Part shown: piece by piece, positions 48,525 through 53,206 of the stretch | Position numbering within the stretch: the first letter of the stretch is position 1 | Layout: each line of letters starts with the position of its first letter | Assembly (NCBI GenBank): GCA_002314935.1 | Contig: DCHW01000064.1 | Coordinates: forward strand, 3,022 to 67,021 | DNA: 64,000 bases | From: Clostridiales bacterium UBA1742 | GTDB lineage: Bacteria > Bacillota > Clostridia > TANB77 > CAG-508 | Reading direction: 5' to 3' | Program-made: the position numbers and the translations under genes | Notes under the pieces: model-generated | What the model saw: only the letters and a program-made list of their open reading frames with translations | Databases searched by the model: none | What the model was told of the DNA's origin: nothing

Positions 48525-48836
48525 ATGAGTAATTATACATTTCCAACTCAAGAACAATTTTTTGAAGACAGAGAAATGCTTGAAGTTATAAAGAAAAGAG
48601 GAACTAAAGCAGCAATTACAGATTTTTCTATTTTATTAGGAGGATATGTAAATGATTATTATCATATAGATGGAGATAGAACTCTTGCAGGTAGAACAGG
48701 CTACTATTGGACAAGATCAGATGATGGAGATAATGACGCGCGCGTGGTCGCTAATGATGGTAGTAGGGATTACTACGATGTTGAATATGCGCGATGGTGG
48801 GGCTCGCCCAGCTTTACCGTTCTCATCAATCGATAA
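48525..48836 (+). CDS. DGR target gene as observed (103 codons, VR at 3' end); native product is probably longer (see 48670..49383)
   Basis: Contains the variable repeat 48733-48817 with a YYWTRS segment just upstream and a stop 17 nt after the VR. However, the TR and VR lengths differ by 1 nt. Confidence 0.5.
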   Translation: MSNYTFPTQEQFFEDREMLEVIKKRGTKAAITDFSILLGGYVNDYYHIDGDRTLAGRTGYYWTRSDDGDNDARVVANDGSRDYYDVEYARWWGSPSFTVLINR

Positions 48837-49383
48837 AATCCCCACGAACGGAGTGAGTGGTAAGCGTGCAACAGATGGAGTATTAGAAGTTGAATATGGA
48901 TTTTATCCACAAAGTGCAGTTTCAAGAGAAATGCAACAAGAATTAGAACGTCAATTCAACAATGGAAGATTAAATAGAACTGGTAATGGATATACAACAG
49001 ATTCAAGAAGATATAATGCTTATGATGAAAAATTTGAAGCAAAAAGACATGAGGAATTTGAATATCGAGGTAAAAGATATGTAAGAGTTGAAGCTAATTC
49101 TGATTTTGGAGGAGGAACATTTACTCTTTCAAATGGAGAAGGATATAGAGACGGGGATAATGTTTGGGTTGAAGTACAACCAATAAAATGGTTGGTAAGT
49201 GAAAGTGATAAATTGATGCTTGCAGAAAAATTAGTTTTTGCAGGAGTTCAATTCAAACATGAAAGAGATTATCATACTGAAGATTTTGGAAAAACAGATA
49301 TAAAAAAATTTATAGATGATTGTTGGTCAAAAGATATTGAACAAGTAAGAAGTAAACGGAAAAACTATGGAAACTGGTATTGA
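48670..49383 (+). CDS. ORF downstream of and overlapping the VR; probably the 3' continuation of the DGR target (fused product about 286 aa if the 1-nt indel in the VR is removed)
   Basis: No convincing RBS or start after 48836. The frame matches the AAY-codon frame of the TR downstream of the indel. It overlaps the AAA ATPase start by 17 nt. Confidence 0.4.
   Translation: MEIELLQVEQATIGQDQMMEIMTRAWSLMMVVGITTMLNMRDGGARPALPFSSIDKIPTNGVSGKRATDGVLEVEYGFYPQSAVSREMQQELERQFNNGRLNRTGNGYTTDSRRYNAYDEKFEAKRHEEFEYRGKRYVRVEANSDFGGGTFTLSNGEGYRDGDNVWVEVQPIKWLVSESDKLMLAEKLVFAGVQFKHERDYHTEDFGKTDIKKFIDDCWSKDIEQVRSKRKNYGNWY
48733..48817 (+). repeat. DGR variable repeat (VR) with IMH-like GC-rich 3' end
   Basis: 10 substitutions relative to the TR, all at TR adenines (to C/G/T), plus a 1-nt indel near 48781. 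Identity is lost just downstream of CGCCCAG(C)TTTAC. Confidence 0.85.
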
Positions 49384-50758
49384 ACCAGAACTTGGAGAAG
49401 GGCAAACACAAAGAACTAGAAAAACTAGATTACAAAGATTAAATCCAGATAAATCACAAGAACAACAAAGAAAGAAAATGACTATAACAGAAGAACTTGA
49501 AAGTTATATTGAAGCAGGAGAAAGTGTTTTATTAAGAGGTCCATCTGGTATAGGAAAAACAGATAGGGTAAGAACATTGTATCCAGATTTAGTTTATATA
49601 AAACTTACTAACAATATGTTTCCAGAAAAAGTTGTAGGTTCAACGAATTTACAAACAGGGGAAAGTATTCCACCAGATTTTGCAAAACAAATAATATTAG
49701 ATAGTGCAACAGATGAAGAAAGAAAATTAGTAGAAGAAAATATTCAAAATATATATGGAGTAGCAGATAAAGTTTTTGAAAGGTCAAAGGAAAGCGACAA
49801 GAAAGTAGTAATATTACTAGATGAGCTTTTAAATGTTAAACCAGCAGTACAAAGTTTAGTTTATACTTTAGTATTAAATAGATTTGTAGAAATGGGAAAA
49901 GGACTTAAATTACCAGATAATGTGGTAATTGTAGCAACAGGAAATCAAAAGAAATATTCTATGGTAGCAGAAGATTTAGCTGAACCATTAGAAAAAAGAA
50001 TAAACCACATAATAGATGTAGAACCAAGAGTTGGAGAATGGATAACTGAATATGCTATTCCAAATGGAGTACATCCACAAGTAATTGGATACATGTTATC
50101 AAAATACAATTCTAATGGACAAAGTGAAAATATAGAAGATATTGGATATTTTTATGAAGAACCAGAAGTTGGAGAAGAACATTTAGATAGATACGGACAA
50201 AAAGGAAGAACAAATGACCCAAGAAGTTGGACTCAAATATCAGATACATTAAAGAATTTTGAAAGTGATTTACAAAAAGGAAAATTTGATGGAATAGATG
50301 TAGAAGATGCTTTAAAAAGAAGAATAGGAACAAAATTAAGGGAAGAATGGGCAGAAGAATTTTATGATTTTTATAATATGCCAACATTAACACCTGAGGA
50401 AGTAGTTAAAGGCGAATACACACAGGGAGATTTGCCACAAGATATAAATGAGAGATTTGCATTTATGACAGCACTTATTACTGCAGATGAAAAACAAGTA
50501 AAGGCATGCAGAGATTTCATAAGAAAACATTGTGACCCAGAATATTTAGCAACATTTGATATTTGTTGGGCAGGTAAAGATGAAAAAAGAGCAAGAAAAA
50601 TAGATGAATTACAAACGTTAGATGAATTAAATGCTAAAACATATAATGCTGACGATACAAGAAGATATGTAAGAGATGGTATGACAGGATTTGAAGCAAT
50701 AGATTTAGCATATACAGAACATCAAAGGGATAGAAATAACGAAGGAAGAGGTATGTAA
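49367..50758 (+). CDS. MoxR/AAA_5-type ATPase
   Basis: Walker A LLRGPSGIGKTD, Walker B VVILLDELLN, and sensor region VATGNQ. Confidence 0.65.
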   Translation: METGIEPELGEGQTQRTRKTRLQRLNPDKSQEQQRKKMTITEELESYIEAGESVLLRGPSGIGKTDRVRTLYPDLVYIKLTNNMFPEKVVGSTNLQTGESIPPDFAKQIILDSATDEERKLVEENIQNIYGVADKVFERSKESDKKVVILLDELLNVKPAVQSLVYTLVLNRFVEMGKGLKLPDNVVIVATGNQKKYSMVAEDLAEPLEKRINHIIDVEPRVGEWITEYAIPNGVHPQVIGYMLSKYNSNGQSENIEDIGYFYEEPEVGEEHLDRYGQKGRTNDPRSWTQISDTLKNFESDLQKGKFDGIDVEDALKRRIGTKLREEWAEEFYDFYNMPTLTPEEVVKGEYTQGDLPQDINERFAFMTALITADEKQVKACRDFIRKHCDPEYLATFDICWAGKDEKRARKIDELQTLDELNAKTYNADDTRRYVRDGMTGFEAIDLAYTEHQRDRNNEGRGM

Positions 50759-51232: not shown

Positions 51233-51625
51233 GTGATTGATATTGATTTAATTGAAGCTCAAAAAGGAATAAAATCAATAGGTGTAATTGTCTTTAATTC
51301 AGATATTCAAAAATTAAATAATTCATGTAATATAGATGCAGGATTAAGTGATTTAGATTTGTTTGGTGTGAGTTTAGGACATCCTATTTTTAAAGAAGAA
51401 TTAGAAAAAGTTTCAAAAGAAAATGAAATTTCATATTTAATAATATCAAATATTGATAAAGTAAATGAAGATAAACAAAATAGGTTTGTAGGATTGGTTA
51501 AAGATAGAGAGTTTATGGGATATAATTTACCAGATAATGTTATAATTGTATTTACAGTAGAAACAGAAAGTGATATAAAGAAAGTTTCAAAAGAACTTTA
51601 TCATTTTTGTGAAGTAAATATATAA
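51233..51625 (+). CDS. hypothetical protein (operon with AAA/VWA genes)
   Basis: 130-aa ORF. Confidence 0.4.
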   Translation: MIDIDLIEAQKGIKSIGVIVFNSDIQKLNNSCNIDAGLSDLDLFGVSLGHPIFKEELEKVSKENEISYLIISNIDKVNEDKQNRFVGLVKDREFMGYNLPDNVIIVFTVETESDIKKVSKELYHFCEVNI

Positions 51626-51646
51626 AACATTGAAAGGAAAAATCTA

Positions 51647-53206
51647 ATGGATATTGATAAAAGTTTAATTTATAAAACTAAAAACCTATTATTAGCTCGA
51701 TATCCGAGATTTGGTAGTGAAGTTGCAAAAGCAAATATAGAATATAGAACAGATTTAAAATATCATACAGCAGCTGCTGATGGAAGAAATGTATATATAG
51801 ATCCTGAATACTTTAAAGGATTGAGTGAAGATGATAGATTATTTTTAATTGCACATGAATTTATGCATAATAAGTTTCTTCACATGTATAGATTAAAAGA
51901 TTCAAATGGTGTGATGAGAGATCCAGATGTTTGGAATGAGGCAACTGATGCTATAATAAATGCAAATTTGGAAAGAGATGGCTTTACTATTAAAAAAGGA
52001 TATGTAAATAGACCAGAAGCTATAAATTATTCTGCTGAAGAATTTTATGAAATACTTTTGAAAGAAAGGGAAGAAAAACAAAAAAATAGTAAACAGAATA
52101 ATCAAAGTGGACAAGATAAAGGCGAACAGGATGAAAATGGGCAAACAGATGAAAATAATCAAAATGGACAGGAAAATAGTAAACAAGATAATACTTCAGG
52201 AGAAAAAGAACAAGATAATCAGTCAGGAAATGATGAAGGAACTGAAAATCAAAGTAATGAATCAAGCGAAAATGAAGGGCAAGAAAATGAACAAGGACAG
52301 AATGGCGAGGAAGAAGAAAAGTTCATGGACGACCATAGTATGTGGGAAGAAGCTTTTCAAGAAAGAGAAAATGGTGCAAAAAAAAGAAAACAAGAAAATA
52401 ATCCTAATAAAAGCGAAAAGAATGATGGAAAACCCTCTGAACAATCTTCTGAACAAAAAAGTGATGATATAAGATTCGAGTTTGACGAAAGAAGTGAATT
52501 TGAACAAAATAGAGAAGAACAACTAGAAAGGGTTAAAAAGAGATTTGATAAAACAAAAAGAAAAATGAGAGGAGAACAAGTTCCAGAAGAAACTATTGAT
52601 TTAGGCAGCATAGGAGAAAGTAGAAATGAAATAGATTGGAAATTGTTGCTTCGCAGAGAAGTTGAAAAAAGTGAAACAATATGGAGTCAAAGACGTTCAG
52701 TCGCAGAAAATAATTATGCATATAGACTTGAAGAAAACGAGGTTGAAGAAGAAGCAGAAACGGAAGTTATGATTGATGTTTCAGGCTCTGTTGATTTAGA
52801 ACTTGTAAAAGCATTTTTAAGAGAATTAAAACCTATAATAAAACAGTCGAAACTAAAAGTAGGTTGTTTTAACGAAAAGTTTTGGGGATTAGTTGATGTA
52901 AAAACAGCAAAAGATATAGATGGCTTTACAATTCCAAGAGCAGCTAGGTCAAATCAATATGCTTGGACAGAAGATTGGGATTTAGCCGTTAGGTCGTTTT
53001 CTAAAAAAAGGGAAATAAATAAAATTGTATTTACAGATGGTTACCCATGTCCGGGAACAATGCCTAAAGAAGATTTAAAAAGAGAAAATGTAATATGGAT
53101 GGTATATGGTAATAAAAGTTTTAATCCATGTTGCGGTAAAGTTATAAATATAACAGAAAAACAATTAGGAAAATTGCATCAAGTATATCAAGAACAAGAA
53201 AGATAA
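51647..53206 (+). CDS. VWA-domain protein with N-terminal HExxH metallopeptidase-like domain (DUF2201-type) and acidic low-complexity insert
   Basis: HExxH in LIAHEFMHNKFLHMYR. MIDAS motif EVMIDVSGSVD. A long E/Q/N/K-rich segment spans about 52070-52560. Confidence 0.6.
   Translation: MDIDKSLIYKTKNLLLARYPRFGSEVAKANIEYRTDLKYHTAAADGRNVYIDPEYFKGLSEDDRLFLIAHEFMHNKFLHMYRLKDSNGVMRDPDVWNEATDAIINANLERDGFTIKKGYVNRPEAINYSAEEFYEILLKEREEKQKNSKQNNQSGQDKGEQDENGQTDENNQNGQENSKQDNTSGEKEQDNQSGNDEGTENQSNESSENEGQENEQGQNGEEEEKFMDDHSMWEEAFQERENGAKKRKQENNPNKSEKNDGKPSEQSSEQKSDDIRFEFDERSEFEQNREEQLERVKKRFDKTKRKMRGEQVPEETIDLGSIGESRNEIDWKLLLRREVEKSETIWSQRRSVAENNYAYRLEENEVEEEAETEVMIDVSGSVDLELVKAFLRELKPIIKQSKLKVGCFNEKFWGLVDVKTAKDIDGFTIPRAARSNQYAWTEDWDLAVRSFSKKREINKIVFTDGYPCPGTMPKEDLKRENVIWMVYGNKSFNPCCGKVINITEKQLGKLHQVYQEQER

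Follow-up and report, generated by a model that had tools for sequence, protein, structure and literature searches.

We analysed a stretch of 64,000 nucleotides (nt) of Clostridiales bacterium UBA1742 (assembly GCA_002314935.1, contig DCHW01000064.1, positions 3,022 to 67,021 of the forward strand), hereafter called the window, in which a diversity-generating retroelement (DGR) is followed by its target gene, by the gene of a putatively MoxR-like AAA+ ATPase and, after two small genes, by that of a DUF2201-type protein combining a zincin-like HExxH domain with a von Willebrand factor A (VWA) domain. This gene order recurs in dozens of species-level genomes and is therefore not a chance arrangement. 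The DGR is active in natural populations, and the module as a whole is mobile and behaves like a cassette. On our analysis, the chances are about even that it acts as a reprogrammable recognition machine of the conflict-system type, in which the diversified domain would be the sensor.

The retroelement and its target in the window

The module and its DGR consist of the following features (positions in the window):
46439-47020, + strand: Avd accessory protein, 193 amino acids (aa), with an N-terminal extension of ~70 aa
47021..47391, + strand: non-coding spacer of 371 nt between avd and the reverse transcriptase (RT) gene, presumed DGR RNA, containing the template repeat (TR)
47093-47176, + strand: TR, recognised from repeat families D3 and D11 and by alignment; in-frame reading DARVVDNNGNRNYNNVNKRNGGARPDL
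47392-48411, + strand: DGR reverse transcriptase, 339 aa
48525..49383, + strand: DGR target gene, frameshifted; open reading frames (ORFs) 48525-48836 (103 aa) and 48670-49383 (237 aa)
48733-48817, + strand: variable repeat (VR), target codons ~70-98, recognised from repeats and alignment
48796..48811, + strand: GC-rich end of the VR resembling an initiation of mutagenic homing (IMH) site, GGTGGGGCTCGCCCAG, identical in the TR at 47155-47170 and encoding GGARP
49367-50758, + strand: AAA_5/MoxR-like ATPase, 463 aa, with a helical C-terminal region of ~250 aa
50758-51228, + strand: conserved 156-aa protein, its start overlapping the ATPase stop
51233-51625, + strand: conserved 130-aa protein
51647-53206, + strand: DUF2201-type protein, 519 aa; HExxH zincin-like domain, acidic/polar linker and VWA-like domain with a metal ion-dependent adhesion site (MIDAS)
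53215..53249, + strand: terminator-like hairpin, 14-bp stem and T-run, 9 nt after the DUF2201 stop

The DGR is complete in the window, with Avd, TR and RT upstream and the VR in the next gene. The RT (RVT_1, 2.6e-18; PHROG 1423, 1.8e-99) carries LGNQSSQ at residue 186 and YMDD at residue 218, which are DGR-type motifs by the criterion of [I/L]GxxxSQ, instead of the group II QGxxxSP, plus YxDD. The Avd protein was recognised by PHROG 3206 ('Avd protein of DGR', 3.5e-15), with matches under the cut-off to Pfam bAvd (1.2e-4) and NCBIfam DivGenRetAVD (3e-6), and its gene adjoins that of the RT in about 17-19 related genome loci. The spacer between the two is 99.7-100% identical across six sister contigs; a search of Rfam with positions 44000-55000, spacer included, returned nothing at E up to 0.1. 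All 12 substitutions between TR and VR fall on TR adenines, alongside a single 1-nt insertion, and differences limited to adenines recur in related loci, for example L010. With its 27 adenines and 8 AAY codons the TR would allow ~8e13 possible protein variants. The divergence of the two repeats begins 6 nt beyond the IMH-like stretch, and the peptide GGARPALPFSS is kept across the target family.

For the activity of the DGR we took 12 target-gene copies with ~97-100% identity to that of the window, eight of them with an identical ATPase; the exact ATPase protein of the window is present on many contigs. Among the 12 copies, 30 of 42 variable sites lie inside a 62-nt stretch of the VR, at TR-adenine positions, and the six DGR-bearing contigs with an identical ATPase have five distinct VRs. 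Since these sister contigs differ almost exclusively at TR-adenine positions, the DGR is active in nature. In one lineage (L001-L005) only a C-terminal fragment of the RT gene is left upstream of the target, and a single identical target protein (P0020) is found there on 124 contigs.

The target gene of the window is itself broken. Its VR is one base longer than the in-frame TR at 48782/48783 (TR GT-AAAT, VR GTTGAAT; in the alignment, TR ...ATGT-AAAT... against VR ...ATGTTGAAT...), and because of this insertion the gene is split into two ORFs. Deletion of one base gives a 285-aa target that is 96% identical to the intact relative P0001. The original prediction, made from the letters of the stretch, had listed ORFs that are all present on the + strand, but it had missed the frameshift, and the "237-aa downstream region" that it treated as a separate feature is the C-terminal two thirds of the target. 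As judged from the frameshift, the window copy would therefore currently make no diversified protein. A contig with 100% identity over 859 nt of the target (L083; JGI 3300001598, 90.5 kb) has the same frameshift. One could thus regard the locus as a decaying remnant, with a target pseudogene whose position beside the ATPase and VWA genes has no present function, and the other disrupted copies (L087, L020), together with the lineages that retain a C-terminal RT fragment, would fit such a view. Against it, four sister contigs with an identical ATPase (L084, L085, L086, L088) have intact 285-aa target genes that are differently diversified, the remaining genes of module and DGR are intact in the window, and the architecture is kept across 72 species-level loci. 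The TR, moreover, is in frame, so that further homing could restore the gene. We consider decay of the locus very improbable.

The same spot of the VR, beside the TR run GTAAATAAA, has been disrupted three times independently: in the window (48782-48783, +1), in L087 (~4381-4465, +1 with another sequence) and in the first copy of L020 (2498-3333, +14), where the insertion resembles a mutagenised partial duplication. Because the three disruptions share one spot, they seem better explained by slippage or template jumping while the cDNA is made than by errors of assembly; they may also be consensus artefacts of mixed populations. Taken at face value they suggest an indel hotspot of the DGR reverse transcriptase and an off switch that later homing could repair.

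The encoded proteins and their domains

Both a signal peptide and a membrane segment are absent from the target, and because of this and of its fusion to the ATPase in relatives it is predicted to be a cytoplasmic protein, neither a tail fibre nor a surface protein. In the window the target and ATPase genes overlap by 17 nt with a change of frame, and the target ends in ...SKRKNYGNWY, an end kept throughout the split lineage, which is a minority. The split at 49330-49400 replaces the continuous linker found in relatives P0125 and P0126 (90-91% identical). The split form may be translated as two proteins or may be rejoined through frameshifting.

A search with the repaired target sequence returned 424 relatives, none of them with a Pfam domain and several of which run on into the ATPase. 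The HMMER scan of 1.84 billion cluster representatives extended the family to 2,347 members. The two-domain module of the target thus belongs to a large family (~2,300 representatives at 50% identity) without a Pfam family of its own, whose members often stand alone or occur as two or three tandem copies per protein, some being fused to ankyrin, leucine-rich or pentapeptide repeats. An AlphaFold2 model of P0001, built with 45 homologues, was of good quality (predicted local distance difference test, pLDDT, 89.5; predicted template modelling score 0.88) and comprises a small N-terminal domain followed by a second one rich in beta structure, with the VR forming strands and loops at ~71-97. The model had no significant structural neighbour, the best Foldseek match in the PDB having an E-value of 0.14 and the best in BFVD, a DUF6273 protein, 0.083.

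DUF6273 also emerged from sequence profiles. Five of the 61 long distant family members that were scanned match Pfam DUF6273 (PF19789; best 2.1e-7), and in one of them, P0342, residues 44-85 align with positions 126-168 of the 172-position profile (24.0 bits, cut-off 23.5), which is exactly the WWTKS...VR segment. Neither the window protein nor its 46 close relatives gave such a match; there was also a marginal match to Fib_succ_major. In gut phages, DUF6273 is reported to be a C-lectin-like domain targeted by DGRs, with the VR lying at the C-terminal end of the domain (PMC10743442, PMC11792537, bioRxiv 10.1101/2024.10.15.618418). Because the matches of distant members cover the VR segment and agree with this literature, the variable domain is probably a divergent DUF6273/C-type-lectin-like domain, a reading in which several weak signals converge and to which no direct significant match contributes.

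The ATPase has Walker A (GPSGIGKT, residue 58), Walker B (LLDE, 150) and sensor-1 (ATGN, 190) motifs, and the two Walker motifs, sensor 1 and the arginine of PL..R are kept in two subfamilies down to 27% identity. An ATPase with this Walker A, following the target with overlapping start and stop codons, had been predicted and is indeed there. It matches Pfam AAA_5 (23.7 bits, cut-off 22), which recurs in most homologues, and PHROG 1297 (2.9e-33). When its profile was aligned by hhalign with E. coli proteins, RavA came first (96.5%, E 1e-9, 196 columns), with a small margin over McrB (95.2%) and ahead of NtrC (80%) and ClpX (15%). Profile searches of the PDB yielded weak matches only, and single-sequence searches nothing useful. 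To call the ATPase MoxR-like is thus reasonable but not proven.

The DUF2201 protein is recognised by PF13203 (DUF2201_N, 9.4e-21) and PHROG 1314 (1.8e-40). It contains HEFMH at residue 70, an acidic/polar low-complexity linker at ~140-330 and MIDAS-type motifs (DVSGS at 377, FTDG at 462), so that the predicted composition of a 519-aa HExxH, acidic-linker and VWA/MIDAS protein was borne out by profile and motifs. PF09967 (VWA-like DUF2201) aligned over its full length under the gathering score (E 0.0033); a homologue in L006 is annotated with both DUF2201_N and DUF2201. All 15 DUF2201 homologues compared, down to 32% identity, have both HExxH and DxSxS. Weak matches to minigluzincins were obtained with profiles (MJ1213, E 0.003) and with a single-sequence search of the PDB. 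By hhalign, similarity of the VWA domain to E. coli ViaA was not detected (probability 3.9%).

Between the ATPase and DUF2201 genes, the 156-aa gene recurs in many loci (36-97% identity) with the 130-aa gene always directly after it, the latter being kept at 29-99% identity. Library scans found no family match for either product. The 130-aa protein resembles the sensor-1 region of the ATPase (NRFV..LPDNVIIV; BLASTP 14/26 identities, E 0.001), and the 130-aa gene and the ATPase gene (49877-49945) also have a common 40-nt DNA repeat (D6). The protein may be what is left of an ATPase subunit, or may mimic one; its reading as a truncated ATPase was dropped, the similarity spanning 26 residues only. 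The genes of the module overlap or abut, and the hairpin at 53215 is the sole + strand terminator-like site between 45000 and 55600; because of this the module would fit a single operon.

Recurrence of the module and its genomic settings

Related loci were collected from species-representative genomes, and the 72 that we obtained all belong to metagenome-assembled genomes (MAGs) of gut Clostridia, Bacilli or 'Tenericutes'. The coupling of the target to an AAA ATPase and an HExxH-VWA protein, which had been proposed from the window by itself, holds throughout this set: the ATPase follows the target in 61 of 63 target copies, the two are one ORF in 52 of these 61 pairs (as in L010, 10001-12232), and in 29 of 31 loci the last gene of the array is that of the DUF2201 protein. 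Searching with the ATPase likewise returned hundreds of proteins of ~738-743 aa with the target at the N-terminus, including P0125 and P0126, with an ATPase 90-91% identical to that of the window. Tandem arrays are common: in 21 loci two or three sensor-ATPase genes precede a single DUF2201 gene. The full Avd-RT pair lies directly upstream in 19 of 50 loci, and an RT fragment alone in three more. In DGR loci with two copies, a single TR matches both VRs with adenine-biased mismatches. Throughout, the members of the module are annotated as 'hypothetical protein'.

Within-locus paralogues are 63-78% identical in the sensor vs 92-99% in the ATPase in six of nine loci. This contrast, seen in L010 (10001-15318), L022, L031, L034, L054 and L060, could reflect gene conversion of the ATPase part or diversifying selection acting on the sensor. 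Many MAG contigs (L011, L015, L023, L037, L041, L042, L045, L046, L050, L056) end at most ~100 nt after the target domain, which is probably due to assembly breaks at the repeated ATPase segments; surveys of short contigs would therefore under-count the full module.

In the window, the DGR and the module lie in a 26%-GC block in which every gene is on the + strand. The other features of note are:
15959-20713: SpaA-repeat protein, 1584 aa
27888-29390, + strand: HerA/VirB4-like ORF (DUF87/HerA-like ATPase)
30577-32370, + strand: group II intron ORF (RT, maturase, HNH)
32764-34071, + strand: NlpC/P60 protein
40792-42435, + strand: MobA/VirD2 relaxase
42553-43941, + strand: C5 methylase
45587..46355, + strand: orphan receiver (REC) gene, split into 45587-45874 (95 aa) and 45882-46355 (157 aa)
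55544-58633, + strand: two serine recombinases, downstream of the module

The initial ~12 kb of the window have a chromosomal look, with genes for a phosphorylase, a galactokinase and a beta-CASP RNase. Beyond them, the relaxase, a type IV secretion ATPase and the recombinases are found in one co-oriented block, which we took as the mark of an integrative and conjugative element (ICE), and the DGR and module are placed between the conjugative backbone (relaxase/methylase) and the recombinases. The location on an ICE, on which the original prediction had leaned, proved not to be general: among the 27 long genome loci, a related serine recombinase was found within 10 kb in one and the relaxase in none, and DGR-less copies with 96-100% identity exist elsewhere. 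The ICE location is for this reason particular to the lineage of the window, and the ICE context was dropped as a general explanation of function. A DNA search with 46400-53300 against plasmid and phage collections gave zero matches.

The flanks of the module vary almost completely, with 342 singleton clusters among 400 flanking ORFs. Its neighbours include tRNA synthetases, SecA and MraZ/MraW as well as ToxN, ParE, HEPN/MNT and Schlafen-AlbA genes, and copies with an identical ATPase or a 96%-identical target occur without a DGR beside unrelated genes (L082, L089, L090-L092). The module, then, is mobile and behaves like a cassette. The commonest flanking gene, found at six loci and directly 5' of avd in DGR-linked ones, is the REC gene, which in the window is split (PF00072, 1.7e-7) and in L010 (6851-7831) and L022 (1052-2044) is a single ORF of 326-330 aa (Response_reg, 2.6e-8); its product may regulate the DGR or the module.

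Some further observations concern these surroundings. Directly 3' of the module in L010, the gene at 17120-18223 encodes a ToxN/AbiQ-type toxin domain (PF13958, 2e-44) that is extended C-terminally by ~200 aa, and HEPN/MNT, ParE and Schlafen-AlbA genes stand beside other copies of the module. On the element of the window, the product of 15959-20713 has 12 SpaA (prealbumin-like) repeats and is probably a surface adhesin borne by the element. The group II intron ORF begins ~1.2 kb 3' of the HerA/VirB4-like ORF of the conjugation module (27888-29390); the DUF87 match of the latter is confined to its C-terminal end, and the intron may therefore interrupt a conjugation ATPase gene within 27888-32370.

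Distant homologues of the ATPase occur in 339 phage records and of the DUF2201 protein in 388, mostly those of lytic N4-like and jumbo phages, at 24-34% identity to the window proteins. Bacillus phage G has both (gp566, gp576). An N4-like Enterobacter phage with an ATPase beside a DUF2201 homologue was set aside as a relative, only the P-loop being common to its ATPase and that of the window; adjacency of the pair in phages is accordingly claimed for Bacillus phage G and by Iyer et al. (PMC7824862) only.

This distribution bears on a second reading of the module, according to which it would serve the element that carries it as a retargetable machine for remodelling or degradation, in counter-defence or host takeover. 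The variable domain would then recruit changing host proteins, for instance defence or restriction factors of new hosts, to the ATPase ring and the peptidase, and the carrier element would benefit. Lytic N4-like and jumbo phages widely carry homologues matching PHROG 1297 and 1314, and such phages would have no cause to bring along a host defence. The module of the window, between relaxase/methylase region and recombinases, is on a conjugative element, and the cassette-like variation of the flanks among loci points the same way. On the other side, two pattern scans of the 2.9 million viral contigs of IMG/VR, for which four peptides of the target domain were used, did not find the lectin-like sensor; most genome loci are on no recognisable ICE and many lie beside housekeeping genes; and the arrangement of several sensors with one effector is more typical of immune-type systems. 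On balance we regard a machine in the service of the element as rather unlikely.

Known systems, proposed function and meaning

RavA-ViaA, CbbQ-CbbO and NorQ-NorD are MoxR-VWA pairs that act as maturation factors. The module resembles RavA-ViaA in joining an AAA+ ATPase of the same broad clade to a VWA partner with a MIDAS, and of the E. coli AAA+ proteins compared by hhalign, RavA matched best. The module could accordingly be a chaperone or maturation system of the classical kind, acting on a protein complex that belongs to the element or the host (for example a metalloenzyme, an adhesin or the conjugation apparatus); the lectin-like domain would be an adaptor, and the DGR variation either incidental or a means of tuning client choice. 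For jumbo phages, Iyer et al. (2021) described a MoxR and metallopeptidase-vWA pair and proposed for it a chaperone role in virion assembly (PMC7824862). However, no conserved client gene adjoins the module, whose flanks are almost all different, and ~1e13 variants, tandem paralogues with divergent N-domains and frequent gain and loss of the DGR are not expected of a housekeeping chaperone. RavA-ViaA and the other classical pairs have no variable domain, peptidase domain or retroelement, all three of which the module has, and its VWA domain is without detectable similarity to ViaA (see above). We hold the chaperone reading to be improbable. The phage pair described by Iyer et al. comes from the same two families as ours, and its vWA protein likewise has HExxH before VWA; unlike those of the module, the phage ATPases are without the N-terminal lectin-like and beta domains. 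In the literature searched we found no link of the phage pair to a DGR.

The original prediction knew of no described system in which a MoxR-VWA pair is joined to an intracellular protein diversified by a DGR. This has to be corrected: Kaur et al. (2020; PMC7159879) and Dore et al. (2024; PMC10907252) reported links of DGRs to MoxR-vWA in cyanobacteria and gammaproteobacteria and proposed DGR-diversified sensors coupled to MoxR-vWA conflict systems, with an architecture different from ours. With these VMAP-ternary systems the module has in common that a cytoplasmic protein is diversified by a DGR, in a domain that is of C-lectin type there and probably so in the module, and that genes for a MoxR-like ATPase and a vWA protein accompany it; both also include a peptidase and multiple paralogous sensors, and the variable domain was proposed there to be an antigen sensor. 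In VMAP-ternary systems, however, the variable domain is of the FGS/TvpA type, C-terminal and usually on the vWA protein, whereas that of the module is probably of DUF6273 type, N-terminal and on the ATPase. A third protein, VMAP, is defining there and none was detected here: no module protein matched VMAP-C in Pfam-A up to E 10, a result that holds if Pfam has VMAP models. The vWA protein of VMAP-ternary systems carries C-terminal effector or FGS domains; that of the module is a phage-type DUF2201 protein with the VWA domain C-terminal and the HExxH domain before it. The hosts differ too, being multicellular bacteria for VMAP-ternary systems and unicellular low-GC gut Firmicutes for the module. 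As it lacks two defining features, the module is not filed with the VMAP-ternary family and stands outside it. The nearest published arrangement is clade 5A of Dore et al., with MoxR beside the target and no vWA, where the target is a separate protein with a C-terminal C-lectin domain (PMC10907252).

Like the DUF6273 targets of phages (tentaclins, PMC10743442; Faecalibacterium prophages, PMC11792537; Toutatisvirus, bioRxiv 10.1101/2024.10.15.618418), the target of the module probably has a C-lectin-like domain of that family, with the VR at the C-terminal end of a domain that can itself be N-terminal; the ecosystem of gut Firmicutes and the persistence of targets without a DGR are also common to them. 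Those targets are extracellular virion proteins (receptor-binding or head decoration) with Ig or Fn3 fusions, whereas ours is predicted to be cytoplasmic and is ATPase-fused, and in the window protein, unlike in them, the match to Pfam DUF6273 is too weak to detect. LdtA of Legionella pneumophila offers another case of a DGR on an ICE that diversifies a bacterial and not a phage gene; as cited by Wu et al. (2018; PMC5758913), it is a lipoprotein of the cell surface whose VR is C-terminal and which, unlike the module, lacks ATPase and VWA partners. The DGR targets of class UVR4 in the candidate phyla radiation match Midasin/AAA and so, compared by description, have an AAA_5-type region like the module; the same source leaves their fold and VR position unresolved and describes no VWA or peptidase partner (PMC5758913). 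Each ingredient of the module has thus been published already. Their combination, namely an N-terminal DUF6273-like VR domain on an ATPase, a DUF2201 partner, no VMAP, tandem arrays and unicellular Firmicutes as hosts, was not found in the literature searched.

We return to the reading of the module as a recognition machine. Its fit to a conflict system rests on several sensors sharing one effector, divergence focused on the sensor, a facultative mutator and the mobility of the cassette. The sensor-ATPase, mostly one protein of ~740 aa and in the window form two translationally coupled genes, would consist of a lectin-like ligand-binding domain, a beta-rich domain and the MoxR-like ATPase. The second core part is the DUF2201 protein with its zincin-like HExxH domain, acidic linker and VWA/MIDAS domain, two small proteins being encoded in between. 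In the roughly 40% of lineages that have it, the DGR rewrites ~13 codons of the putatively lectin-like domain by adenine-specific mutagenic retrohoming, with ~1e13-1e14 possible variants, and at two-copy loci it rewrites both paralogues. The variable domain may bind a changing intracellular ligand, a protein or other molecule, most likely from an invading phage or mobile element. Binding would be passed on to the ATPase ring, which, via the MIDAS of its VWA partner, would remodel or release the peptidase domain as the output, several sensor-ATPase paralogues feeding one peptidase-VWA effector. The sensor of the window would be switched off by the +1 insertion in the VR, a by-product of retrohoming that another round of homing could repair. 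We infer the sensor role, the interaction of ATPase and VWA and the zincin output from this architecture as a whole.

A number of observations weigh against this reading. In 28 of 50 loci the 2.5 kb upstream hold neither a DGR nor a remnant of an RT, and diversification is therefore not essential to the module. The target is frameshifted in the window, L087 and L020, so that the module can do without its sensor, at least for a time. Of the 147 top representatives of the target family (P0291-P0437), no more than 19 carry the ATPase. The MoxR assignment relies on weak sequence signals, and the AlphaFold2 model of the fused 735-aa protein P0126 was poor (mean pLDDT 62, with 30-60 in the ATPase part). 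The genes flanking the module are highly heterogeneous (342 clusters for 400 ORFs). Hundreds of lytic phages encode distant homologues of the ATPase or the DUF2201 protein, so that the pair can work for a mobile element and not in defence of a host. Finally, PADLOC-DB 2.0 contained no significant match to the module proteins: generic RT models match the RT, the ATPase has a weak partial match to DolB (6.8e-6, 71 residues), and neither the target nor the small proteins nor the DUF2201 protein matched any model. The original interpretation stands in part. Its premise of a target that is cytoplasmic and no tail or surface protein agrees with our results, while the PADLOC search and the phage homologues do not favour the diversifying defence or exclusion function that it suggested, which is a conjecture.

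Should the module work as proposed, it could be the first case of a retroelement reprogramming the recognition domain of an AAA+ protein, with the DGR continually redirecting a MoxR-like ATPase and its peptidase-VWA partner to new ligands inside the cell. It would also be a compact, mobile adaptive-like system, immune or counter-immune, in which the indel hotspot of the VR is a reversible switch; we put this forward tentatively and regard it as somewhat doubtful. Intracellular diversification by DGRs has so far been tied to multicellular cyanobacteria and proteobacteria, and would, if the mechanism is right, reach the unicellular Firmicutes of the gut, an ecosystem rich in DGRs. The hypervariable C-lectin-like domain would then be a specificity module of an AAA+ protein, and not a surface adhesin or a receptor-binding protein of a phage. 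Its five genes and a three-part DGR make the module compact enough for asking what ligands a cytoplasmic target binds and how MoxR-VWA pairs signal, and the domain might be engineered into a scaffold that links directed binding to an ATPase and a protease.

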